The notes under the pieces are model-generated. The model searched no databases. It saw only the letters and a program-made list of their open reading frames with translations, and had not been told where the DNA came from. Shown here in pieces: positions 9,375-64,000 of a stretch of DNA of 64,000 nucleotides; position 1 is the stretch's first letter; each line of letters begins with the position of its first letter. The translations under genes were made by a program, and so were the position numbers. Origin of the DNA: an uncultured Chloroflexota bacterium (GTDB taxonomy: Bacteria > Chloroflexota > Limnocylindria > Limnocylindrales > CSP1-4); contig CAIJPD010000055.1 of the NCBI GenBank assembly GCA_903822495.1, positions 34,903 to 98,902 of the forward strand, given 5' to 3'.

Positions 9375-10319
9375 CTAGAAGAGCGAGGCGTACGTGCCGG
9401 CCCGGATGACCGTGTGCTTGCTCAGCCAGTTGCCGACCAGGATGAGCGCGCCGGCGACACCGGCCGCCATCGAGGCGTTGGAGCCCGAGGCGGACAGCGC
9501 GTAGGTGATGAGCGCGAGCGGGATGACCAGCCCGGCCAGCATCACGCCGCCCAGGTAGGCCACCTGGAGGTTGCCCGAGAGCAGGCGCCGAACGGCGACC
9601 TTGGCGGCCACGTGCGTGTACGTTCCGTTGAGGACGTGGGCGATCTGGAGGAAGACCGACAGGACAAGCATCCCGGTGGTCAGCGACAGCCAGCCGGTCA
9701 GCACATCACCCGTGACGTCCGACGGCGCGATCGCCGCGTAGATGAGCCCGCAGGCGAGGCCGCTGGCGAAGCCGTTGACCAGGAACTGCATGGGGATCAG
9801 CGTGCTGTTCCAGAACGGGATGCTGGGCGACGACGCCAGCACCAGGCCCGGGTACGTGATGACGACGATGGCGGCCAGCGCCGCGACCACCTGGAAGACG
9901 AGGCCCAGCGTGCCGTCGCCGTGCCAGGGGAGGCCGGTCAGGTTCAGGCCGCCACCCCCGACGTTGAAGTCAGCCAGCGTCCACAGGCCGGCGAGGCCCA
10001 TGAACGTGAAGTCCGCGATGGCGCCGACGCTGATCCACGACGTCCGCGGGTTGAGCAGCGACCGCAGGAGGCGGAGCGGCTTGCCCAGGTCGGCGATCAG
10101 GATCAGGCCGCCAACACCGATCAGGACGAGGCTGAGGATGTCCGCCCAGGTCATCCCCAGGAACCGGCCCATCTCGATGCCAAACACCATCCGGTTGATG
10201 AACAGGCCACCACCGACGCCCATGAATGTGAACCAGGTGGCGTGCTGGTTCCCCCAGACGTTCTGGGTCTTGGGCTCCATGATCCAGCGCCCGGTGAACG
10301 GGTTTACGACCGACGACAC
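9375..10319 (-). CDS. NrfD/PsrC-type integral membrane subunit of the Mo-oxidoreductase
   Basis: Polytopic membrane protein (about 8 hydrophobic segments by eye) directly downstream of the FeS subunit gene. A GTG at 10319 is preceded by GAGGGGGG; the alternative start is the ATG at 10280. The 5-prime part of track ORF 9375-10535 overlaps the FeS gene and is rejected. Confidence 0.7.
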   Translation of the reverse strand: MSSVVNPFTGRWIMEPKTQNVWGNQHATWFTFMGVGGGLFINRMVFGIEMGRFLGMTWADILSLVLIGVGGLILIADLGKPLRLLRSLLNPRTSWISVGAIADFTFMGLAGLWTLADFNVGGGGLNLTGLPWHGDGTLGLVFQVVAALAAIVVITYPGLVLASSPSIPFWNSTLIPMQFLVNGFASGLACGLIYAAIAPSDVTGDVLTGWLSLTTGMLVLSVFLQIAHVLNGTYTHVAAKVAVRRLLSGNLQVAYLGGVMLAGLVIPLALITYALSASGSNASMAAGVAGALILVGNWLSKHTVIRAGTYASLF

Positions 10320-10377
10320 GGGTCCCCCCTCGGCACTTGGCCGGTTGCGCGCAGTCCCTCGACCAGCGCGGCGATGC

Positions 10378-10980
10378 TCAGCGCAGGTAGTAGACCGACG
10401 GCCCGGTGCCGGCTTCGGGCCGGGCGGGGCTGCCGTTTCGATCGCGGATGACGCGAGAGATCTCGCTTCCCGGATCCTCCAGGTCGCCGAAGATCCGCGC
10501 CTTGGTCGGGCAGACCTCGACGCACGCCGGCTCAAACTTGCCCGCGTCGATCCGATGGGAGCAGAAGGTGCACTTCTGGACCGTCCCGGCCGTGGACTTG
10601 AAGGACTGCTTCTCCAGCTGGATCAGCTCGCCCCCGAAGGCGCCCTGCACCTCGTGGACGTAGTTCATGGCGCCGTACGGGCAGGCGGCGACGCAGGCAC
10701 GGGTCCCGCAGCACTTGGCCTGGTCGACCAGCACGATCCCATCGGTGCGCTTGGCGATCGCCTTGGTCGGGCACGCCTTCAGACAGGGCGCGTCCTCGCA
10801 GTGCATGCACAGCGTCGGGATGAACATGCGCTTGACGTTTGGATACTTCCCGACTTCCTTCTCGTAGACCGGTGCATACCAGACCCCGTCGGGCGTGCCG
10901 TTCTCGGTCTTGCACGCCATCGAACAGGCGTAGCAGCCGACACACCGCTCGAGGTCGAGGGCCATCCCCCAACGAGTCAT
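10378..10980 (-). CDS. 4Fe-4S ferredoxin-type (DmsB/PsrB-like) electron-transfer subunit
   Basis: 200-aa ORF with four Cys groups: CVGCYACSMAC, CMHCEDAPCLKACP, CCGTRACVAACP, CTFCSHR...CVEVCP. Confidence 0.9.
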   Translation of the reverse strand: MTRWGMALDLERCVGCYACSMACKTENGTPDGVWYAPVYEKEVGKYPNVKRMFIPTLCMHCEDAPCLKACPTKAIAKRTDGIVLVDQAKCCGTRACVAACPYGAMNYVHEVQGAFGGELIQLEKQSFKSTAGTVQKCTFCSHRIDAGKFEPACVEVCPTKARIFGDLEDPGSEISRVIRDRNGSPARPEAGTGPSVYYLR

Positions 10981-11007
10981 CGTTCGTCCTCCCCCGGATG
11001 CTGTTGG

Positions 11008-13581
11008 CTAGGCCTTGCTGATCTTGATCTTGACGCAGGAGTCCAGGGCGGCGGACACCGTGTCCATCCGGTCCAGCGTGAACTGGACCAGGTTGTTGAA
11101 GTGCACGCCGCGGCTGCCGTCCTTGCCGATGGCGTCCTTGTTGCCGGCCGTTGTCCGACCGAACATGCCGGGCGCCGATGCGCACTCGGGGTGGATGCCC
11201 TCGGTGAGGCGTGCGATGCCCTTGACCTTCTTGCCGATAGGCGTCTCGATCCAGATCTCGTCGCCGTCCACGATGCCCTTCCTGGCCGCGGTGGCTCGGT
11301 TGATCCCGATGTTGAAGACCTTGCTGTTGCGCTTGGCCAGGTCCATCAGGAGCGGGTTCTCCGCGCTGTAGGTGCCGGCCATGAACGGCAGCTTCTGGTT
11401 CACCAGCCACATGTCGAACTGGGCCGGCGCCTGCTTCTCGGTCAGGCAGGGCTGGAAGTCCATGACGGCGCTGTAGTCGGAGACGTCCCACTCGATGTCG
11501 CGGGAGTCCGTGTAGGCCTTGACGGCGACGCCCGCGTCGAGGAAATGCTCGAGGTAGAGCGGCACGCGACCGCCGTGGTGGATGAGCGGGTAGGCGTACT
11601 TGGCCAGCCGTGCCTCGTCCTTGAGGTAGCCGTTCTTCCGGAAGTAGTCCAGGCCGTGGTCGGCGCCCACCGTGGACTTGGTCCAGCGGTCGGAGAAGTC
11701 CTCCCAGGTGTACTTCTGGTCGCGCTTGAGTTGGTACTCGCCGGTGATGTGGCAGGCGGCGTTGAGGGCCGTGTTCATGTCCGGCCCGATGCCCGCCCGG
11801 AAGGCGACGTCGATAAGGACCTCGCCCCAGTTGCGGGCCTTCTCGACCACCTTGACGACCGGCTGCTGGAAGTTCCAGGTGCCGGACTCGTCGACGGAGG
11901 CCGCATTCGTGAAGTTGTTGGGGTTGCCCACGAGGGGGGTCAGCCGCTCCAGCGAGTGCTGATCGGGGAGGAGGAGGTCCGCAAACGCGGCCGTCTCGTC
12001 CTCGAACGGGTTGAGCGAGACGATGAACCCGATGGTCTTCATGGCCTTGGCCATGGTGTCGGGGTCCCCGGAGGTCTGCATGATGTTGCCGCGCGAGGTC
12101 ACCAGGACCTCGCACTTGTACGGCAAGCCGAACTTGTCGCCCTCCAGCAGGCCCAGCCAGAGCATGGCCCGGGCGTAGACGGAGGTCGGGAAGAGCTCCT
12201 GGAGCTCCAGCGTCTCGGGGGCCGACACCTTGCGCCGCGGGAGCGCGGGCTTCATGTGGCCGGCCAGCGGGTTGCCGGGGTAGATGAACCCGTCCGGGTC
12301 CAGGTTGGGCCGCCAGGTGGGGCCCATCGACGACGAGTTGAGCACGCCGCCCGGGACGTCCACGGCGCCCAGCAGCATGTTGAGCTGGCCCATGAGCATG
12401 CCCGAGGCCATCGCGTGACGGTGTGCCGAGATGCCGCGATACCAGCTGATGGCCGCGGTCCGGAGCGGGTAGGTGTCACCCTCCAGCTGGATCGTCTGGC
12501 CGATGCTGGCGGCCTCGACGACCTCGTGGGCGACGCGCGTGATGGTGGCGGCCGGGACCGAGGTGACCTTGGAGGCGTACTCGGCCGTGTACGGCTCGAG
12601 GTGCTTCTTGAACACGACGAACGCCGGGGTGGCCTGCACGCCGTCCACGGTGAAGGTGCCCTCGAGGGCGGCCTCGTCGGACGGGGCCTGGTCGAACGGC
12701 AGCGCGGCGCCGGTGGCGGCGATGCCGACGAGCGGCTTGTTGGTGGCCTTGTCGCGGATGTAGCGGCCGTCGGCGCCCACCAGGTAGGTGGCATTGGTGT
12801 GGCGCTTGAGGAAGGTCTTGTCGTAGTGGTCCTGGACGATGACCCACTCGCGCATCATCGCGAGGGCGAAGGCCGCGTCCGTGCCGGGGCGGATGGGAAT
12901 CCACTCGTCCGCGTGGGAGGCCGCGTAGTTGAGGACGGGATCCACCACGGTCAATTTCATGCCGCGCTGGCGGGCGTCCTGCATCTCGACGCTGTAGCCC
13001 ATCGCGTTGTGGCCGCCGACGAAGCCCGCCGACGCACCGAACATGAGCAGGTGGTTGCAGTACTTGAGGTCGTCGTGGATCTCGTTGGAGGCCGTCAGGG
13101 TGAAGGCCACCGGGTGCGTGCCGTTCCCGCAGAAGATGCCGGCCGAGCCCATCGTCACGTTGGGGCTGCCCACGGCGGTGGAGAACGCCTTGGCGACGGA
13201 GTAGGTGTAGCGGTCGAAGGTGTGGGTCAGGATGCTCCGGGGATCCTTGTCCATGGCGGCCTTGATCTTGCTGGCGAACAGATCAAGCGCCTCGTCCCAC
13301 GAGATCTCCTTCCAGCCCGGGTCGACGCCGACGCCCTTCTGGGGGTTCGTGCGGACCATGGGGGCCTGGACGCGATTGGGGCTGTAGACGTTCATCAGGG
13401 CCGACAGGCCCTTGGCGCAGGTCTTGCCGTAGTTGGGCCCGACCCCGGGGATGCCCTCGATCTTGACCGCGACCCCGTCCACCCGGTGCACCTGCACGGT
13501 GCAGCCGTTGTAGCACATGTCACAGGCCGTCGGAATCCAGACGTCCTCAGTCACCCCTGCCATCGGAAGTGCGACCGCCAC
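11008..13581 (-). CDS. molybdopterin (bis-PGD) oxidoreductase catalytic subunit, DMSO-reductase superfamily, no Tat signal
   Basis: 857-aa ORF. The N-terminal FS0 motif is CDMCYNGC...GKTCAKG, and the size is typical of this family. GTG at 13581 is preceded by AGAGGGGAGAG. Only 32 nt separate this start from the upstream MoaD-like stop, so there is no room for a twin-arginine leader. Confidence 0.9.
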   Translation of the reverse strand: MAVALPMAGVTEDVWIPTACDMCYNGCTVQVHRVDGVAVKIEGIPGVGPNYGKTCAKGLSALMNVYSPNRVQAPMVRTNPQKGVGVDPGWKEISWDEALDLFASKIKAAMDKDPRSILTHTFDRYTYSVAKAFSTAVGSPNVTMGSAGIFCGNGTHPVAFTLTASNEIHDDLKYCNHLLMFGASAGFVGGHNAMGYSVEMQDARQRGMKLTVVDPVLNYAASHADEWIPIRPGTDAAFALAMMREWVIVQDHYDKTFLKRHTNATYLVGADGRYIRDKATNKPLVGIAATGAALPFDQAPSDEAALEGTFTVDGVQATPAFVVFKKHLEPYTAEYASKVTSVPAATITRVAHEVVEAASIGQTIQLEGDTYPLRTAAISWYRGISAHRHAMASGMLMGQLNMLLGAVDVPGGVLNSSSMGPTWRPNLDPDGFIYPGNPLAGHMKPALPRRKVSAPETLELQELFPTSVYARAMLWLGLLEGDKFGLPYKCEVLVTSRGNIMQTSGDPDTMAKAMKTIGFIVSLNPFEDETAAFADLLLPDQHSLERLTPLVGNPNNFTNAASVDESGTWNFQQPVVKVVEKARNWGEVLIDVAFRAGIGPDMNTALNAACHITGEYQLKRDQKYTWEDFSDRWTKSTVGADHGLDYFRKNGYLKDEARLAKYAYPLIHHGGRVPLYLEHFLDAGVAVKAYTDSRDIEWDVSDYSAVMDFQPCLTEKQAPAQFDMWLVNQKLPFMAGTYSAENPLLMDLAKRNSKVFNIGINRATAARKGIVDGDEIWIETPIGKKVKGIARLTEGIHPECASAPGMFGRTTAGNKDAIGKDGSRGVHFNNLVQFTLDRMDTVSAALDSCVKIKISKA

Positions 13582-18989: not shown

Positions 18990-21299
<2,310 letters not shown>

Positions 21300-50615: not shown

Positions 50616-51704
50616 ATGATGCGCGTCGCCGTCCGAATCTTCCATCCGGAGCCCGGACCGGCCGCCGGGCCGCTCGAATCGTGGTTGGGCGCCTCCCGCG
50701 CGCGGCTGGCCCAGCGCCACCGGGCCGCGTTCGAGGCCGCCGGCGCCAACGACATCCGGATCGAGGCCGGCCCGCCCGACGACGTCCCGTTCGGCCGCAG
50801 GCTCCGCGACGCCCTCGCCGATCGACCCGAGCACGGAATGCACGGCCTGGTGGTCCTGGGCTCCGGCGCGATCCCGCTCGCGACCCGCCGCGACTACCGG
50901 CGCCTGGTGGATGCCGCGCGGGGACCCGCTGGGACCGCGCTGGCCAACAACCGCTTCTCCGCGGACGTGGTCGCCATCGCCGGCCTGGCCGCCCTGCGCG
51001 ACCTCTCGGATGCGATCACCGACAACGCCCTCCCGCGCTGGCTCGCCGAGGCGGCCGGCTACGCCGTCACCGAGCTCCGGGCACGGGACCGCCTGGGCCT
51101 GGACCTCGATTCGCCGCTGGACCTGGTGCTGACGTCGCTGGCCGCGGGCCGCCCGACGGGCGGGCAGACGCCGGCGTGGGCGCCCGAACCGCCCGCCGCG
51201 GCCGGCCTCGGACCGGTGCTCGATCGCCTCGGCCGGATTCGGGCCGTCGCCGCCGATCCCCGGGCCGAGCTGGTGGTCGTCGGCCGGACCTCGGCGGCGG
51301 CGCTGGCCTGGCTGGAGCAAAACGCGGCCGCGCGAGTTCGGGCGCTGGTCGAGGAGCGTGGGCTCAAGACCGGGGCCGCCGATGGCCGGCCGCCCGTGTC
51401 CGTGCTGGGTGCCCTGCTGGACCGGGATGGCCCCGATGCGTTGGGCACCATCCTCTCCCGGCTGGGCGAGGCCGCGATCCTGGACACGCGCGTGCTCCTT
51501 GCCCATCGCCTTGGCCGCGACGAACGGGGCTGGCCGGCCGCGGAGGACCGGTTTGCCAGCGACCTCCTGCTCCCCGGCCGCGTCCGCGACCCATGGCTCC
51601 GGGCGCTGACCGCCTCCGCGGCCGCGGCACCCATCCCGGTCCTGCTGGGCGGCCACAGCCTGGTGGGTCCCGGGCTCCACCTCGTCGTCGGCGGTGACGC
51701 GTGA
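50616..51704 (+). CDS. hypothetical protein (possibly nucleotidyltransferase/GT-A-like), coupled to the MidA-like gene
   Basis: 362 aa. The ATG at 50616 lies 7 nt after a TAGACT -10-like hexamer and has no SD (leaderless?). The stop overlaps the next start (GTGA). The segment HGLVVLGSGAIPLATRRDYRRLV only weakly resembles NTP-transferase folds. Confidence 0.5.
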   Translation: MMRVAVRIFHPEPGPAAGPLESWLGASRARLAQRHRAAFEAAGANDIRIEAGPPDDVPFGRRLRDALADRPEHGMHGLVVLGSGAIPLATRRDYRRLVDAARGPAGTALANNRFSADVVAIAGLAALRDLSDAITDNALPRWLAEAAGYAVTELRARDRLGLDLDSPLDLVLTSLAAGRPTGGQTPAWAPEPPAAAGLGPVLDRLGRIRAVAADPRAELVVVGRTSAAALAWLEQNAAARVRALVEERGLKTGAADGRPPVSVLGALLDRDGPDALGTILSRLGEAAILDTRVLLAHRLGRDERGWPAAEDRFASDLLLPGRVRDPWLRALTASAAAAPIPVLLGGHSLVGPGLHLVVGGDA

Positions 51705-52939
51705 CCCACGACCCGTTCGCCGCCGCCCTGGGCCTTCGGCGCGTCGCGGGCCTGGACCCTCGGCCAGCCCCGTCCAGCCATCCCGCCCTCGCCGCGAAGA
51801 TCGCCGGGGAGATCCGCGAGCGCGGCCCCATGACCTTCGCCCGGTTCATGGCGCTGGCCCTGTACGACCCCAAGGGCGGCTACTACACCGCCGAGCAGGC
51901 CCGACCCGGCCGGGAGGGCGACTTCATCACCGCCCCCGAGGCGCATCCCATCTTCGGCTGGTCGCTGGCACGCCAGGTCCACCAGGTCTGGGAGCTCCTG
52001 GGCTGTCCCGACCCGTTCGTCCTGCGCGAGCACGGGGCCGGGGCCGGCGCCCTGGCCCAGGCGATCCTCGACGGGCTGGCGCGCGACGGGTCCGGTGTCC
52101 TCCACGGGCTGCGCTATCAGCCCGTGGAGGTCGAGCCCCGCCGGATCGAGGCGCTCGCGGCGCGGCTGGCCGCCGCGGGTCACGGCGCGCGCCTGGACCT
52201 CGCGGGCGCCGCCGATCCGGCCCCGCTGACCGGGCTGATCCTGGGCAACGAGGTCCTCGACGCGCTCCCGGTCCATCGTGTCCGGGGGCTGGCCGACGGC
52301 GGGCTGGAGGAGCTGTTCGTGGTGGAGGCCGCAGGGGCGGCCGAATCCGTGCCTGCCTTCGAGGCCCTGGCCGGTCCGCCCTCCACCCCCGCCCTCGCCG
52401 CCCGTCTCGCCGGCGAGGGGATCACCCTCCGCCCCGGCCAGGACGCCGAGATCTGCCTGGCGCTGGATGCGTGGGTCGCGGACCGGGCCGCCGAGCTGGG
52501 CCGCGGCCTGCTCCTGCTCGTCGACTACGGGCATCCCGCCCCGGAGCTGTACGACGGCTTCAAGCGGCCGCGCGGCACGCTCCTCGCCTATCGCCACCAC
52601 CGCGCGCTGGACGAGCCGTTCGCGGCCGTGGGTCGCCAGGACCTGACCGCGCACGTCGACGTGACGGCCGTCCAGCGCGCCGCCGAGGCCGCCGGCCTGG
52701 TGACGGCGGGGATCACGACGCAGGCGGAGCTGCTCACCAGCCTGGGCGCGGGCGAGCTCTTCGCGGCGCTGGGAGGCGACCCCGCGACCGCGCCCGAGGA
52801 CTACCTGACGGCACGCTCGGCGCTCATGCGGATGCTCGATCCGGCCGCCATGGGCAAGTTCCGGGTCATGCTCATGGGGCGCGGGTTGCCGCCGGACTGC
52901 CGGCTCCGGGCCCTCGACTTCCGCCTCCCACGGCGCTGA
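51701..52939 (+). CDS. SAM-dependent methyltransferase, MidA/NDUFAF7 (DUF185) family
   Basis: Motifs MTFARFMALALYDPKGGYYT, DFITAPEAHPIFG, EHGAGAGAL, LGNEVLDALPVHRV, LLLVDYG. Confidence 0.85.
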   Translation: MTHDPFAAALGLRRVAGLDPRPAPSSHPALAAKIAGEIRERGPMTFARFMALALYDPKGGYYTAEQARPGREGDFITAPEAHPIFGWSLARQVHQVWELLGCPDPFVLREHGAGAGALAQAILDGLARDGSGVLHGLRYQPVEVEPRRIEALAARLAAAGHGARLDLAGAADPAPLTGLILGNEVLDALPVHRVRGLADGGLEELFVVEAAGAAESVPAFEALAGPPSTPALAARLAGEGITLRPGQDAEICLALDAWVADRAAELGRGLLLLVDYGHPAPELYDGFKRPRGTLLAYRHHRALDEPFAAVGRQDLTAHVDVTAVQRAAEAAGLVTAGITTQAELLTSLGAGELFAALGGDPATAPEDYLTARSALMRMLDPAAMGKFRVMLMGRGLPPDCRLRALDFRLPRR

Positions 52940-57313: not shown

Positions 57314-57961
57314 ATGAACCTGATCCCCGGCATCGGCATCGTGCGGGGCATGAGCCTGACCCTGCGGCGGTTCTTCCAGCCCAAGGTCACCATCCGCTAC
57401 CCCGAGGTCCCCTCGGACGTCGCGGTCAAGTTCCGTGGCCGCCTCCAGCTGCTCTACGACGAGAACGGCTCGCTCAAGTGCGAGACCTGCTTCCAGTGCG
57501 CCCAGGCCTGCCCCATCGAGTGCATCGACATGGGCGGCATGGACACCAAGGGCCGCTTCCACGTCCACTGGGGCGCGGCGGAGACCTACGGCGAGCGTCG
57601 CGAGGAGTCCGCGCTGCGACGATCCGGGCGTCCCGTCCCTGATCCCGCCTACGAGCGCTTCGCGCCGATCGACATCGCGGCCGTGGACAGCATCCTCGAG
57701 GACTTCGACCATGACCCGGCCCAGCTGCTGGGCATCCTCGAGGCAACCCAGGCGGCCTTCGACTACCTGCCGGTTGGGGCGCTGAAGCGCATCTCCGAGC
57801 GGACCGGCACCGGCTATGCACAGATCTACGGCACGGCCTCCTTCTACGGCCACCTCCGGCTGGGCGCCCTCGGCGCACCGGCAGCGGCACCCTCGGCCGC
57901 GCCGTACCTCGCCGCGCTCGCGGCCGCCACAGGTGCAGCCGGAAGGCAGGCCGACGCGTGA
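57314..57961 (+). CDS. nuoI: fusion protein: N-terminal half of NuoI (one 4Fe-4S motif) + NuoE-like N-terminal helical domain
   Basis: 215 aa. Residues 1-120 are NuoI-like (FFQPKVTIRYPE..., C56xxC59xxC62xxxC66P), with no second CxxCxxCxxxCP motif. Residues ~124-183 read DSILEDFDHDPAQLLGILEATQAAFDYLPVGALKRISERTGTGYAQIYGTASFYGHL, which resembles the NuoE N-terminus, and no 2Fe-2S Cys residues follow. Confidence 0.8.
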   Translation: MNLIPGIGIVRGMSLTLRRFFQPKVTIRYPEVPSDVAVKFRGRLQLLYDENGSLKCETCFQCAQACPIECIDMGGMDTKGRFHVHWGAAETYGERREESALRRSGRPVPDPAYERFAPIDIAAVDSILEDFDHDPAQLLGILEATQAAFDYLPVGALKRISERTGTGYAQIYGTASFYGHLRLGALGAPAAAPSAAPYLAALAAATGAAGRQADA

Positions 57962-59287: not shown

Positions 59288-61918
59288 ATGACCGACCTGC
59301 TCTCCCGACCCACCTCTTCCGCCGACGCCGAGCGAGCGCTTGCCGAGCGAGCGCTTGCCGAGCGAGCGCTTGCGGAGCGCCTGCTGACCGCCGACGCGCC
59401 CCAGCGCCCGCAGTCCACCCCGGTCATCCGGATCGAGGTCGACGGCCAGGTCGTGGAGGGCCGCGAAGGCCAGACCATCCTCGAGGTCTGCCGCGACAAC
59501 GGGATCGAGATCCCGACGCTCTGCTACGAGCCCAAGCTGCCGGGCTTCGGCGCCTGCCGCATGTGCGTCGTCGAGGTCGAGGGCGAGGAGCATCCGCCCA
59601 TCTCGTGCTCGCGCCACGCCGAGCCGGAGATGAAGGTCCAGACCCAGACCGAGGGCCTCCGGCGCCTCCGGAAGACCAACCTCGAGCTGATCTTCTCGGA
59701 CCACAACGCCTACTGCCTGCCGCCCTGCCAGAACAAGTGCCCCAGCCACATCGACATCCCCGGCTTCCTCAAGCAGAACGCCGAGGGCGAGTGGCGCGAG
59801 TCGGCCCGGATCTTCAAGCGCACCATCCCGTTCCCGTCCGTCCTGGGACGCGTCTGCCCCGCGCCATGCGAGGAGCACTGCCGTCGCGACGAGATCGACG
59901 AGGCCATCGCCATCCGCGACAGCCACCGGCACGCCGGCGACCAGGTCCTCAAGGCCATGCTGGACCAGGGCATCGACCCGCCCGTCCCGTTCGAGCTCCA
60001 GCCCAAGACCGGACGGCGCGCTGCCGTCATCGGCTCGGGCCCGTCCGGCATGTCCGCCGCCTACTACCTGCTGATCGCCGGCCACGACGTGACCATCTTC
60101 GAGCGCGACGCGGCCCCCGGCGGCATGCTCCGCTACGGGATCCCCCAGTACCGCCTGCCCAAGGTGGAGGTCCTGGAGGCCGAGTACGAGTCGGTGACCC
60201 GCCTGGGCGGCCGGATGGTCTGCAACCAGGAGCTGGGCAAGGACTTCTCGCTCGACGACCTGCAGAACCAGGGCTTCGACGCCGTCGTCGTCGCCATCGG
60301 CTGCTACGACAGCAACAAGCTGGGCATCCCCAACGAGGACGCGGACGGCGTCATCGACGGCCTCGAGTACCTGCGCACCGCCACCCTGGGCCTGCCCTAC
60401 CCGGACCACGCCGGCAAGCGCGTCGTCGTGATCGGCGGCGGCTTCACCTCCATGGACTGCGCCCGGACCTCGGTCCGCCAGGGCGCCGCGGAGGTCACGC
60501 TGGTCTACCGGCGCGACATGAAGGACATGCCGGCGTCCGGCGAGGTCCACGAGGCCATCGAGGAGGGGGCGCAGGCCATCTTCCAGGCCGGACCAACGCG
60601 CGTCGTCAAGGACGAGGCTTCCGGCAAGGTCACCGGCGTCGAGTTCATCCGGATGGCCCTGGGGGCACCCGACGCCTCCGGCCGACGCCGCCCGGAGCCC
60701 GCGCCCGGCACCGAGTTCGTCATCCCGTGCGACCGCGTCCTGCTGGCCATCGGCCAGGGGCCGGACCTGACCTGGATCGGCCCCGGCAACCAGGGCGTCC
60801 AGGCCGCGCGCTACCGCCTCAAGGCCGACGCGGTCACGTTCGAGACCGGCCGGACGGGCGTCTTCGCCGCCGGCGACGTCCGGGTCGGGGCCGCCACCGT
60901 GGTCCAGGCCATCGCCGAGGGCCGGCGCGCCGCCTACGCGGTCGACGCGTACCTGCAGGGCCAGGACCTCTCCGGCATCCGTGCCCGCCAGATCCTGGCG
61001 GAGCCGCAGCCCGAGTTCCTGAGCATCGTCCCCTTCACCAGCGAGGCCAAGGAGCCGCGCTATCGGATGGCGGCGATGGAGGCCGAGGAGCGCAACCGGA
61101 GCTACGTCGAGTACGAGCTGCCGTACACGCGCGAGCAGGCGGTCGCCGAATCCACCCGTTGCCTGCAGTGCACATGCGAGGCCATCGGCTTCTGCGACCT
61201 GCGGCGCATGGGCATCGAGTACGGGACCACGCTCAAGACGCTGGAGCCCGGCCACGACCACGGCGCCGGCTACCGCTCCGTGACCGAGAACCGGTTCACC
61301 GGCAGCAACCACGACTACGTGCGCGACGACAGCCACGCCTTCATCCTCCGCGAGCCGTCGCGCTGCATCGACTGCGGGCGCTGCGCCAACGTGTGCGCCG
61401 AGGTGGTGGGCGCCGCCTGCTACGACTTCATGCGGATCGGCTTCGACACCCTGGTGACGACGCCGCTCGACATGAGCCTCAACGACACCCCGTGCGTGTC
61501 GTGCGGGCGGTGCGCGGAGACGTGCCCCACCGGCGCGCTCATGCCCAAGCCGCGGATCCTCCAGAAGTACGAAGTGGACGAGAGCCGCTGCATCCTGTGC
61601 GGCATCTGCGTCGACGCGTGCCCCTACGACGCGCTGCGCGACGGCGGCGACTACGAGCTGGCGCACACCAGCCGGGCCGAGCCCACCATCGACCTGATCG
61701 CCCTCGCCGGCATCGACCGCGAGACCGAGGTGACCTACATCCGCCGCGACCAGAGCTGGCGCGATCGGGCGGCCGCGAGCGGACATCTGGTCGGCGCCGG
61801 TCGACAGCTGCCGGTCCTCCCCGCGTCCGTGACGGCGCAGCTGGGCGCGGGCAACGGACACGGCCACGACCACGGCCCGGCCGGAAGCTCCGGCACCGGC
61901 CTCGCGCGCCTCAAGTAG
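59288..61918 (+). CDS. multidomain FeS flavoprotein: NuoG-type 2Fe-2S + GltD-like FAD/NAD(P)H oxidoreductase + 4Fe-4S ferredoxin motifs + C-terminal half of NuoI
   Basis: 876 aa. Residues 45-110 carry CYEPKLPGFGACRMCVVEVEG...SC. Residues ~135-565 are GltD-like (CLPPCQNKCP, FPSVLGRVCPAPCEEHC, AAVIGSGPSGMSAAYYL, VVVIGGGFTSMDCARTS, GVFAAGDV). Residues 690-750 carry CIDCGRCANVC...CVSCGRCAETCP. Residues 755-810 read KYEVDESRCILCGICVDACPYDAL..DYELAHTSRAEPTIDL, which is NuoI-like. Confidence 0.85.
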   Translation: MTDLLSRPTSSADAERALAERALAERALAERLLTADAPQRPQSTPVIRIEVDGQVVEGREGQTILEVCRDNGIEIPTLCYEPKLPGFGACRMCVVEVEGEEHPPISCSRHAEPEMKVQTQTEGLRRLRKTNLELIFSDHNAYCLPPCQNKCPSHIDIPGFLKQNAEGEWRESARIFKRTIPFPSVLGRVCPAPCEEHCRRDEIDEAIAIRDSHRHAGDQVLKAMLDQGIDPPVPFELQPKTGRRAAVIGSGPSGMSAAYYLLIAGHDVTIFERDAAPGGMLRYGIPQYRLPKVEVLEAEYESVTRLGGRMVCNQELGKDFSLDDLQNQGFDAVVVAIGCYDSNKLGIPNEDADGVIDGLEYLRTATLGLPYPDHAGKRVVVIGGGFTSMDCARTSVRQGAAEVTLVYRRDMKDMPASGEVHEAIEEGAQAIFQAGPTRVVKDEASGKVTGVEFIRMALGAPDASGRRRPEPAPGTEFVIPCDRVLLAIGQGPDLTWIGPGNQGVQAARYRLKADAVTFETGRTGVFAAGDVRVGAATVVQAIAEGRRAAYAVDAYLQGQDLSGIRARQILAEPQPEFLSIVPFTSEAKEPRYRMAAMEAEERNRSYVEYELPYTREQAVAESTRCLQCTCEAIGFCDLRRMGIEYGTTLKTLEPGHDHGAGYRSVTENRFTGSNHDYVRDDSHAFILREPSRCIDCGRCANVCAEVVGAACYDFMRIGFDTLVTTPLDMSLNDTPCVSCGRCAETCPTGALMPKPRILQKYEVDESRCILCGICVDACPYDALRDGGDYELAHTSRAEPTIDLIALAGIDRETEVTYIRRDQSWRDRAAASGHLVGAGRQLPVLPASVTAQLGAGNGHGHDHGPAGSSGTGLARLK
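59327..59371 (+). repeat. in-frame 15-bp x3 perfect tandem repeat (AERAL)3, plus a degenerate 4th unit to 59386
   Basis: gccgagcgagcgctt at 59327, 59342 and 59357, followed by gcggagcgcctgctg. Located at codons 14-33 of the 876-aa ORF. Confidence 0.9.
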
Positions 61919-62516: not shown

Positions 62517-62830
62517 ACCTCGCGAACTCACTGGACAGCTACCTGGTGCTGTCCGGACTCCTGTTCGCCATCGGCACCTTCGGGTTCCTCGCCCGCCGGA
62601 ACGCCATCAGCATGCTGATGTCGGTTGAGCTCATGCTCAACGCCGTCAACCTGGCCATCGTCGCCTTCGGCTCGTTCATCGAGGGCCTGAAGGCCGACGG
62701 CCCCATCATCGCGCTCATGGTCATGGCGGTCGCGGCCGCCGAGGCCACCGTGGGCCTCTCCATCGTCATCGCGATCTTCCGCAACCGGAAGACCCCGCTG
62801 GTCGACGAGTACGACGCGATGTCCCGCTGA
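62513..62830 (+). CDS. nuoK: NADH-quinone oxidoreductase subunit K
   Basis: 105 aa. Motif [27 protein letters not shown], ending [21 protein letters not shown] overlap with nuoJ. Confidence 0.9.
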
Positions 62831-64000
62831 TGGATGCGCTGACGCCGTACATGGACACCCTGATCCCGCTCATCGCGGTCCTCCCGATCGCGGGCTTCCT
62901 GTTCACGGCCGCCTTCGGCCCCCGGCTGGGCCACAACGCCCACCTGGTGCCGGTCGCCGCCGTGGGCGCGGCCTGGCTGATCGCCATGGCGGTGGTCTAT
63001 ACCTCGTTCACCGGCGGGTTCGGGGACGGCGGCCACCTGGTCAAGCTCTGGGAGTGGATCCCCGCCGGCAACTTCAACGTCGAGGCGGCGTTCTTCGTCG
63101 ACAACCTGACCGCGTGCCTCCTGATCGTGGTGTGCACCATCGGCCTCCTCGTGCATGTCTACTCGATCGGGTACATGGGCCACGACACGGGCTACTGGCG
63201 CTTCTTCGCCTACCTCAACCTGTTCATGTTCTCGATGCTCCTGCTGGTGCTGGCCAGCAGCTGGCTGGTCATCTTCGTGGCCTGGGAGCTGGTCGGCCTC
63301 TCGTCGTACCTGCTCATCGGGTTCTGGTACAAGAAGCGGTCCGCCGCGCTGGCCAGCAAGAAGGCCTTCCTGGTCAACCGGGTCGGCGACATCGGGTTCG
63401 CGCTCGGGATCATGGCCATCTGGGTGAACACCGGGACGCTCGACATCCGCGAGTCCATCGAGTTCCTGGTCACCCACACCGCGACCCTGCAGATCCCGAT
63501 CGCGGTGGTCGCGCTGCTCCTGTTCGCCGGCGCGATGGGCAAGAGCGCGCAGTTCCCGCTCCACGTCTGGCTGCCGGACGCGATGGAGGGCCCCACCCCG
63601 GTCTCCGCGCTGATCCACGCCGCCACGATGGTCAATGCCGGCGTCTACCTGGTCGCCCGCGCCAATCCCATCTTCGCCAGCGCCCCGCAGGCGATGGCCG
63701 TGGTGGCCGCGATCGGCATCTTCACCGCGCTCTTCGCGGCGAGCATCGCGCTGACCCAGACCGACATCAAGCGCGTGCTGGCCTACTCCACGCTGTCGCA
63801 GCTGGGCTACATGTTCGCGGCCCTGGGCGTGGGCGCCTGGACCGCCGCGATCTTCCACCTGATGACCCACGGCTTCTTCAAGGGCCTCCTCTTCCTGGGC
63901 TCCGGCTCCGTGATCCACGCGGTCCACGAGGAGCAGGACATGCGCAGGATGGGCGCACTGGCAAAGAAGATCCCGCACACCTACCGGACCATGCTGATCG
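62830..64000 (+). CDS. nuoL: NADH-quinone oxidoreductase subunit L (3-prime truncated by window end)
   Basis: Own translation from the ATG at 62830 (overlapping the nuoK TGA): [25 protein letters not shown]...HVYSIGYMGHDTGYWRFFAYLNLFMFSMLLLVLASSWLVIFVAWELVGLSSYLLIGFWY. The frame stays open to the window edge. It is absent from the ORF track because no stop is reached. Confidence 0.9.
   Translation, partial: MDALTPYMDTLIPLIAVLPIAGFLFTAAFGPRLGHNAHLVPVAAVGAAWLIAMAVVYTSFTGGFGDGGHLVKLWEWIPAGNFNVEAAFFVDNLTACLLIVVCTIGLLVHVYSIGYMGHDTGYWRFFAYLNLFMFSMLLLVLASSWLVIFVAWELVGLSSYLLIGFWYKKRSAALASKKAFLVNRVGDIGFALGIMAIWVNTGTLDIRESIEFLVTHTATLQIPIAVVALLLFAGAMGKSAQFPLHVWLPDAMEGPTPVSALIHAATMVNAGVYLVARANPIFASAPQAMAVVAAIGIFTALFAASIALTQTDIKRVLAYSTLSQLGYMFAALGVGAWTAAIFHLMTHGFFKGLLFLGSGSVIHAVHEEQDMRRMGALAKKIPHTYRTMLI

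Follow-up and report, generated by a model that had tools for sequence, protein, structure and literature searches.

What enzyme is encoded by a complex I operon in which a protein with a GltD-like flavin domain stands among the nuo genes? This question is raised by a 64,000-nt stretch of DNA from an uncultured Chloroflexota bacterium (contig CAIJPD010000055.1), hereafter called the window, the G+C content of which is ~70%. Its nuo operon includes three open reading frames (ORFs) that we name IE (215 amino acids, aa), F (440 aa, NuoF-like) and X (876 aa). Our preferred answer, to which we assign a probability of roughly 0.55, is that the operon encodes a complex I with an input module that derives from NfnABC/StnABC and splits nuoI, and that this enzyme is non-bifurcating and passes electrons from NADH at flavin mononucleotide (FMN) and from NADPH at flavin adenine dinucleotide (FAD) to quinone. 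The sequences show homology, domain content, the split of nuoI, co-conservation and conserved residues; which cofactors are bound, how electrons run, which substrates are used and in what direction the enzyme works are worded below as predictions.

Inspection of the gene order, nuoABCDH-[I_N::C']-[B']-[A'::I_C]-nuoJKLMN, showed that the IE-F-X block sits between nuoH and nuoJ, the expected place of nuoI, and not between nuoD and nuoH. A sequence-only reading of the window had assigned X to the NuoG position; this holds in that X follows a NuoF-like gene, but the block lies where nuoI belongs. The set of NuoA, B, C, D, H, J, K, L, M and N is complete, with nuoM and nuoN, which lie outside the window, read from orthologous loci. 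Among 20 further window ORFs scanned with Pfam there was no canonical nuoE, nuoF or nuoG. For comparison, GTDB species genomes were scanned and the best 80 loci were taken with 10 kb on either side (68 complete, 12 cut by contig ends); an intact nuoI between nuoH and nuoJ was absent from every one of the 80.

NuoI was found in two halves. The NCBIfam model TIGR01971 (121 positions) matched IE residues 12-77 at positions 1-65 and X residues 756-800 at positions 71-115, and in the alignment with solved structures IE residues 9-74 corresponded to residues 23-88 of plant TYKY/NDUFS8 and the X tail to residues 99-163. When IE 1-82 and X 754-826 were spliced in silico, one NuoI match covering positions 1-116/121 was obtained at 101.3 bits, compared with 50.7 and 45.7 bits for the unspliced halves, and homologues from Thermoleophilia spliced likewise scored 106.5 bits. 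The N-terminal half holds a single CxxCxxCxxxCP motif (C56, C59, C62, C66), the Cys of which are invariant in 77 sequences, and the C-terminal half holds C768, C771, C774 and C778-P together with PYDAL...YELA. Every cluster of a 2x[4Fe-4S] ferredoxin fold is held by three Cys of one motif together with a single Cys of the other motif. As each half has one such motif, formation of N6a and N6b would require pairing of IE and X; the two clusters would then be ligated across two polypeptides. Re-associated in this way, the halves would connect the module with N2 and the site of quinone binding. That they are fused to the module at either end is the best evidence for a physical place of the module within complex I.

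The ferredoxin-type motifs that the sequence-only reading had described behind the GltD-like unit of X are indeed present (three CxxCxxCxxxC(P) motifs, at residues 693-703, 736-746 and 768-778), but the last one and its flanks make up the C-terminal half of NuoI. We considered whether the motifs at 736-746 and 768-778 could by themselves be an 8Fe ferredoxin unit of the usual kind, polyferredoxins being the top phmmer matches there. This idea was rejected because the flanks are NuoI-specific and the motifs at 693-703 and 736-746 align to the dicluster domain of NfnA, and because the lone motif of IE would then be partnerless.

The remainder of X is homologous to the A subunits of soluble NfnABC-type enzymes. 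Residues 46-778 aligned with residues 3-699 (of 1178) of NfnA from Caldicellulosiruptor (Csac; 9bov_A) at E 4e-161, and the values for NfnA from Thermococcus (Tsi; 9n5u_A) and Sporomusa StnC (8oh5_C) were 1e-142 and 1.5e-141. A monomer model of X was built with AlphaFold2 (AF2) from a 70-sequence alignment of two clades. The top three Foldseek matches of this model were Csac NfnA, Tsi NfnA and StnC, and its GltD-like part matched NfnI-L, NfnB and GltD with a template modeling (TM) score of 0.77-0.78 and a root mean square deviation (rmsd) of ~3 Å. The resemblance to NfnAB/HydABC-type systems that had been remarked earlier is accordingly real homology, for X and also for F, which reached ~1e-101. 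Assignment of X as NuoG, GltD, an AegA/YgfK-type or an SfrB-like protein was rejected, since every curated model scored below its cut-off (TIGR01973 for NuoG, 86.8 vs 470 bits; TIGR01318 and TIGR01317 for GltD, 308.9 vs 482.95 and 241.6 vs 447.7; PRK12814 for SfrB-like proteins, 542.8 vs 916). No molybdopterin domain was found in X by Pfam, in agreement with the earlier statement that the molybdopterin body of NuoG is absent.

The NuoG/hydrogenase-type 2Fe-2S motif reported for the N-terminal region of X reads C79-x10-C90-x2-C93-x13-C107 in the translation. It is followed by H139-x3-C143-x3-C147-x3-C151-P and C190/C194/C198, by the Rossmann motifs GSGPSG (249-254), GGGFTSMDCARTS (383-395, including GGGFTS at 383-388) and YRR (407-409), and by the junction motif. 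The two junction signatures, HxxxCxxxCxxxCP and CxxCxCx5C, are also those of StnC (PMC7483475). The GltD-like unit is complete, as the sequence-only reading had held, with its Cys clusters and both nucleotide motifs in place and both Pfam domains matched. In the 80 X orthologues all FeS (iron-sulfur) Cys, H139, H213, the FAD/NADPH glycines, E272 and R408/R409 are invariant, including the FAD- and NAD(P)H-binding residues, a lack of which had been named as speaking against the unit. The Cys, H139, H213, the FAD/NADPH glycines and R408/R409 are likewise invariant in a second clade whose members are 41-47% identical to X, and such invariance is far beyond chance. His213 replaces the Lys ligand of cluster A7, which is "strictly conserved" in StnC (K170) and is Glu in NfnSL (PMC11829005, PMC10482914). 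YRR after the second Rossmann strand and GxGxx(S/A) would fit NADPH at the GltD-like site, and the NADPH site of StnC has been discussed on like grounds (PMC7483475).

The N-terminal extension of X holds a 15-bp tandem repeat at 59327-59379 (3.5 copies, 97% match) that encodes (AERAL)n. A 99% identical protein of 871 aa from another assembly (P0003) has exactly one AERAL unit fewer than X, which indicates that the copy number varies.

The best matches of F in the PDB were NfnB (9bov_B, residues 107-526 of 584, E 4e-101), StnB and HydB, all at ~1e-101. F covers the core of BfuB only, that is, the FMN/NADH fold and the site of cluster B1 (=N3); alignments with 9bov_B and with BfuB of Thermoleophilia showed neither the N-terminal thioredoxin-like domain (B5/Zn) nor the C-terminal 2x[4Fe-4S] domain (B3/B4). 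The Bfu-specific residues of the B2 Zn site (C331, H418, C424, C429) are retained, which points to descent from BfuB and not from canonical NuoF. Only 27% of the positions of F are >=97% conserved, and the cluster motifs and the NADH/FMN features are near-invariant: GRGGAG[F/Y]P of loop 1, K72-W73, GEET, GSG of loop 3 and D94. In NfnB the same loops, Lys and GEET contact NADH or FMN (PMC11829005, PMC12018979), and the Glu of GEET, which is kept in F, is reported to select NADH over NADPH there (PMC12018979). D94 is equivalent to D186 of StnB and D195 of the Tsi protein, next to FMN (PMC10482914, PMC12018979). Near the cluster motifs, C343 (in 68/77 sequences), T/S351 and D395-H396 are candidates for the fourth ligand of an altered B1/N3.

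IE combines the NuoI half with part of a C subunit. Its residues 118-187 align to residues 20-89 (of 176) of NfnC (9bov_C) and to 17-87 of StnA (8oh5_A), and the Pfam model 2Fe-2S_thioredx matched at positions 2-62 of 145 only. The thioredoxin-like domain with the C1 [2Fe-2S] cluster is missing from IE, and there is no Cys beyond residue 70. The part that is kept corresponds to the N-terminal domain of NfnC, by which the C subunit is held in place between subunits A and B of NfnABC (PMC11829005). Residue C70 is an extra invariant Cys directly behind the motif of the NuoI half (CPIEC).

From these results we propose that nuoI, in a complex I operon of the 11-subunit type, took up a soluble module of the NfnABC/StnABC type, the three subunits of which would be IE, F and X. 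The N-terminal half of NuoI would have been joined to the NfnC-like anchor domain and the C-terminal half to the NfnA-like end, where it would replace the formate-dehydrogenase-like domain. In Csac NfnABC the electron path is FAD-A7-A6-A3-A2-A1-B1-FMN, with a dead-end branch A2-A4-A5 into an inactive formate-dehydrogenase (Fdh)-like domain (PMC11829005). The X motif at 768-778 aligns with the A5 motif of NfnA (9bov_A 689-699), and the C-terminal half of NuoI begins ~20 residues after the A2/A4 domain. The former dead-end arm may therefore have become the outlet, A2 -> A4 -> N6a/N6b (in split NuoI) -> N2 -> quinone. Electrons of NADPH would enter by NADPH -> FAD -> A7 -> A6 -> A3 -> A2 and those of NADH by NADH -> FMN -> B1 -> A1 -> A2, and protons would be pumped through NuoH and NuoJ-N. 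As both flavins would stand on one FeS junction, slow exchange between NADPH and NAD+ is possible too. If this scheme is true, the Y-shaped FeS junction uses three arms, one each for FMN/NADH, FAD/NADPH and quinone. In canonical complex I, NuoI receives its electrons from N5, which is a cluster of the A3 type. In X the A3-type arm is presumably taken up by the GltD insertion, and the exit to NuoI likely runs via the A4 arm and not via N5. Two distinct flavin/nucleotide sites, NuoF-like for FMN/NADH and GltD-like for FAD/NADPH, on one FeS chain had been predicted before, and our data support this.

The arrangement is conserved among species. The order nuoA-B-(C)-D-H-IE-F-X-J-K was found in 80/80 Limnocylindria species loci, with intergenic gaps of -4 to +10 nt, and nuoL>nuoM>nuoN came next in 54/54 full-length loci; X is thus co-conserved with nuo, a point on which the sequence-only reading had left room for doubt. 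The median identities were 83% for X, 79.6% for NuoB, 78.5% for NuoD, 71.2% for NuoH, 70.6% for IE and 65.4% for F, X being the most conserved protein of the operon and F the least. Nearly all of the best 80 loci are labelled as metagenome-assembled genomes (MAGs) of Chloroflexota or Candidatus Limnocylindria/Limnocylindrales. Close relatives of X occur in at least 547 GTDB species representatives which, together with the second clade, means that the arrangement is not rare.

The members of the second clade are MAGs of Thermoleophilia or Actinobacteria (loci L081-L084), in which both the NuoI tail of X and the split-nuoI operon are found alike. Three of these loci encode a full BfuBC core of the bifurcation type (L081 7330-10004; L083 7311-9994; L084 7318-10004). 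Their C-like protein (253 aa) keeps the Cys motifs of C1, and their B-like protein (~640 aa) keeps the thioredoxin-like domain, NGDEGDP, CGKCVPC...LCALGG and the two C-terminal [4Fe-4S] motifs. In two of the three loci, GESTAL and KHIRTVAHGL stand in place of GEETAL and RPPFPA..GL. The X proteins of Limnocylindria and Thermoleophilia form one clade within the NfnA-like proteins (100/100 bootstraps in a neighbor-joining tree). Because the two groups stand together, this simple distance tree argues for one insertion event followed by reduction in Limnocylindria. On that basis it is possible, though we hold it as a tentative view, that the two phyla (Chloroflexota/Limnocylindria and Actinomycetota/Thermoleophilia) share an undescribed class of complex I in which a whole NfnABC was spliced into NuoI, and that the Limnocylindria form arose by loss of the bifurcating parts. 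The Thermoleophilia form could bifurcate in the Bfu style, and the Limnocylindria form is most likely a plain two-donor NAD(P)H:quinone oxidoreductase. Should this be true, the Thermoleophilia form is a membrane-bound proton pump that couples NADH, NADPH, ferredoxin and quinone by bifurcation or confurcation.

Among the other NfnA-like proteins, six of 810-850 aa (P0134, P0147, P0158, P0179, P0195, P0221) all end with ...N(N/S)(I/V)DHCARL. Their ends probably reflect a UGA that lies in frame and encodes selenocysteine in an active site of the formate-dehydrogenase type, where the predicted proteins were cut short; if so, GltD-containing, selenocysteine-dependent enzymes similar to formate dehydrogenase exist that are miscalled as short proteins.

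Several observations weigh against the two-donor reading. The spliced NuoI, at 101.3 bits, is slightly below the curated TIGR01971 cut-off of 113. In the AF2 model of X the GltD part is good, but the predicted local distance difference test (pLDDT) score is <50 at residues 629-825, and the hand-over from A4 to split NuoI is predicted from position in the sequence. The NADPH specificity of X is suggested by the YRR and GxGxxS/A motifs and by homology. In F, the FMN site is altered, NADEGDP being changed to an invariant NGYGADP, the B1/N3 motif reads CGK[T/S]IPC, in which the second Cys is lost and 3/4 Cys are left, and an invariant LCDHER is found in place of LCGLGQ. FMN or B1 could therefore be missing in F, and NADPH would then be the only donor. 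Such an NADPH-only complex I, in which F and the NuoE-like part are structural relics that scaffold X, would also agree with the low conservation of F and with a NuoE-like part cut down to its anchoring N-terminal domain. However, the changed motifs of F are themselves invariant, unlike decay, and the NADH/FMN loops, K72, GEET and the three cluster Cys are near-invariant in a protein where only about a quarter of the positions are; D94 by FMN is kept as well. The changes look like re-tuning under selection, with occupancy of the FMN and B1 sites a prediction, and we give the NADPH-only enzyme little weight. Still less weight is given to an enzyme that works in reverse or sideways, making NADPH for biosynthesis either as a quinol:NADP+ reductase driven by the proton motive force or as an NADH:NADP+ transhydrogenase. 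Complex I is reversible, and by homology the two nucleotide sites would be connected via A2-A1-B1. The Nfn/Stn ancestors physiologically produce NADPH (PMC11829005, PMC10482914). Against this, nothing in the sequence sets the direction, none of the features examined points to reliance on reverse electron flow, and transfer from NADH to NADP+ without energy coupling has nearly zero driving force. Aerobic heterotrophy of these lineages, which we assume, would speak against it also.

Bifurcation or confurcation of the Bfu type, which the sequence-only reading had entertained, could be set up with NADH and a low-potential donor, or by tight coupling of NADPH, NADH and quinone. In its favor, the bifurcating NfnABC/StnABC are homologues of the module, the Thermoleophilia sister clade has retained [B1-FMN-C1] and B3/B4 in full within the same split-nuoI operon, and a "Nuo-Bfu" confurcation to quinone was proposed for phyla other than these (PMC9304861). 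At minimum, Bfu bifurcation requires the site [B1-FMN-C1], with B3/B4 serving ferredoxin (PMC11829005). Since the window proteins are without C1 and B3/B4 and have a modified B1 with 3/4 Cys, such bifurcation is unlikely in the window enzyme, and the FAD of StnC was reported to be non-bifurcating (PMC10482914); overall we regard this alternative as highly improbable. The other proposal made earlier, that NADPH as well as NADH may be a donor, is better supported than bifurcation, the use of NADPH being a prediction. The last alternative, that the nuo cluster harbours the operon of a soluble oxidoreductase unrelated to it, or that the arrangement is an artefact of assembly or frameshifts, is effectively refuted. 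Foreign genes do occur inside the nuo operons of some genomes. In the present case NuoI halves stand at both ends of the module in an operon without other nuoI, 80 independent species assemblies as well as a second phylum share the identical arrangement, the genes abut or overlap, and all ORFs of the operon are intact with a coding-type G+C content at third codon positions (0.91-0.96).

We next compared the two-donor complex I that we favor with known systems. The soluble NfnABC/StnABC enzymes (9BOV/9BP5, 9N5U, 8OH5) share with the window the gene order C-like, B-like, A-like; an A subunit with a 2Fe-2S domain, HxxxCxxxCxxxCP, a GltD/NfnL-like FAD/NADPH domain, CxxCxCx5C and a dicluster domain; the FMN/NADH fold and B2 Zn-site residues of the B core; and the N-terminal domain of the C subunit. 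They differ in that the window module is fused to both NuoI halves inside a nuo operon and in that X carries the C-terminal half of NuoI where they have an Fdh/NuoG-like C-terminal domain (A5). Their C1, B3/B4 and N-terminal thioredoxin-like domains are absent from the window, B1 has 3 Cys, and Lys of A7 is changed to His. Nuo-Bfu, described by Schut et al. (2022, PMC9304861), is similar in having a Bfu module in the middle of a nuo cluster as the input of a proton-pumping quinone reductase; it is a predicted 14-subunit complex I with BfuABC for NuoEFG in Geobacter, Deferribacteres, Planctomycetes and Nitrospirae, and no Chloroflexota or Actinomycetota are listed (PMC9304861). Its module takes the canonical nuoEFG position and leaves nuoI intact, whereas that of the window lies inside nuoI. 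Unlike the window proteins, its BfuA is NuoG-like without a GltD/FAD/NADPH domain and the ferredoxin domain is retained in its BfuB. In the Thermoleophilia relatives the BC core is full, yet the position is the same non-canonical one as in the window.

The canonical N-module (NuoE/F/G) shares the FMN/NADH fold of NuoF, the N1b 2Fe-2S cluster and the ferredoxin-like N4 domain, and its complex the NuoA-D/H/J-N core. Compared with canonical complex I, the window has no N1a, no molybdopterin-like NuoG body, a split NuoI, a different gene position, an extra FAD/NADPH domain and two extra [4Fe-4S] clusters. In the Mbx-like operons of Degli Esposti (2015, PMC4758237) a GltD-type flavoprotein accompanies a complex-I-like membrane module at the NuoI position, but the complex is of the Mbx/Mrp type, the flavoprotein substitutes for NuoI and is not inserted into it, NuoF/NuoE-like partners are absent, and the flavoprotein is proposed to reduce NADP+ (PMC4758237). 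The Fer4_20 + Pyr_redox_2 unit of X is found also in GltD, NfnB/NfnL, SudA, SfrB and the N-terminal domains of dihydropyrimidine dehydrogenase (DPD). GltD is a stand-alone protein of ~470 aa paired with GltB, whereas the unit of X is embedded in a NuoG-like FeS protein, with nuo neighbours and no GltB. In the full-text literature, subscription journals not covered, we found no published account of a nuoI in two parts or of a nuo operon with an Nfn-type module. Measured against the literature found, a nuoI that is split and joined to an NfnABC-derived module at either end is new.

In the prevailing view, complex I acquired its NADH module a single time, by recruitment of a soluble NuoEFG-like diaphorase. 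An Nfn-type Bfu complex recruited separately, at another place in the operon and through another link (split NuoI), would be a second natural example of the gain of an input module. The two-donor reading predicts a proton pump that oxidizes NADPH directly; if so, catabolic NADPH feeds the respiratory chain without a transhydrogenase. The Thermoleophilia form is a candidate flavin-based bifurcating complex that would be membrane-bound and quinone-linked, and comparison of the two forms reveals which parts are dispensable in a module still under strong selection.

Table 1. Coordinates (positions in the window) of the operon genes and of the domains of IE and X.
Feature	Position	Strand	Evidence or remark
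nuoA, 118 aa	53116..53472	+	ORF; position-matched orthologue in 68 complete loci; Pfam Oxidored_q4 at L081/L083/L084 equivalents
nuoB, 231 aa	53463..54158	+	ORF; synteny kept; N2-cluster motifs CC...C...CP (LACCAFEM, MGDCTCSGG, PGCPPRPE)
nuoC, 181 aa	54161..54706	+	start located; Complex1_30kDa at L081-L084 equivalents
nuoD, 403 aa	54720..55931	+	start located; median identity 78.5% (71 loci)
nuoH, 445 aa	55963..57300	+	Pfam NADHdh, E 4e-104
IE, 215 aa	57314..57961	+	ORF
NuoI N-terminal half, IE residues 1-83	57314..57562	+	TIGR01971 positions 1-65/121; TYKY/NDUFS8 residues 23-88
Linker, IE residues 84-117 (HVHWGAAETYGERREESALRRSGRPVPD...)	57563..57664	+	highly conserved in 77 orthologues; no family match
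IE NuoE/NfnC-type N-terminal helical domain (residues 118-187) and non-conserved Ala/Pro tail	57665..57961	+	9bov_C, 8oh5_A alignments
F, NuoF/NfnB core, 440 aa	57958..59280	+	Complex1_51K and NADH_4Fe-4S (Pfam)
X, 876 aa	59288..61918	+	ORF
X N-terminal extension, non-conserved	59288..59422	+	holds 15-bp tandem repeat
X [2Fe-2S] domain, A1/N1b type	59423..59650	+	Fer2_4, residues 46-121, E 2e-20
X HxxxCxxxCxxxCP and GltD-type two-[4Fe-4S] domain (A6/A7)	59702..59953	+	Fer4_20, residues 143-222; 9bov_A alignment
X FAD and NAD(P)H Rossmann domains	60020..60922	+	Pyr_redox_2, residues 245-545, E 1e-27; AF2 model confident
X CxxCxCx5C junction motif, C625-x2-C628-x-C630-x5-C636	61160..61195	+	invariant
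X ferredoxin-like dicluster domain (A2/A4; NuoG N4 region)	61343..61540	+	Fer4_Nqo3, residues 686-751; aligned to 9bov_A
NuoI C-terminal half, X residues ~754-822	61547..61753	+	TIGR01971 positions 71-115/116 of 121; TYKY residues 99-163
X C-terminal tail, Gly/His-rich, non-conserved	61754..61918	+	low conservation
nuoJ, 195 aa	61929..62516	+	Oxidored_q3, E 1e-30
nuoK, 105 aa	62513..62830	+	ORF; synteny
nuoL 5' part, leaves window	62830..64000	+	tblastn, 58% identity vs Thermoleophilia NuoL

Immediately 5' of nuoA, at 51701-52939 (+), lies a gene for a PF02636 (Methyltransf_28) protein (E 8e-52). We take this family to be that of NDUFAF7/MidA, a complex I assembly methyltransferase in eukaryotes, and the location of the gene beside the nuo operon of a bacterium may have significance. 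No tRNA gene was found by a scan of the whole window, nor any Rfam match at the gathering threshold. At 9375-13581 (-), an 857-aa molybdopterin oxidoreductase with Fe4S4 and dinucleotide-binding domains adjoins an NrfD-type membrane subunit, and this pair is a second quinone-linked redox complex of the window. Finally, a 769-aa ORF at 18990-21299 (-), where the G+C content is 78%, has an N-terminal domain that looks NYN/LabA-like by eye, followed by ~600 aa of repeats (RSEGTPIETLRETGRGG three times, GEAGE runs, and APADEA.KPRRTRA three times).

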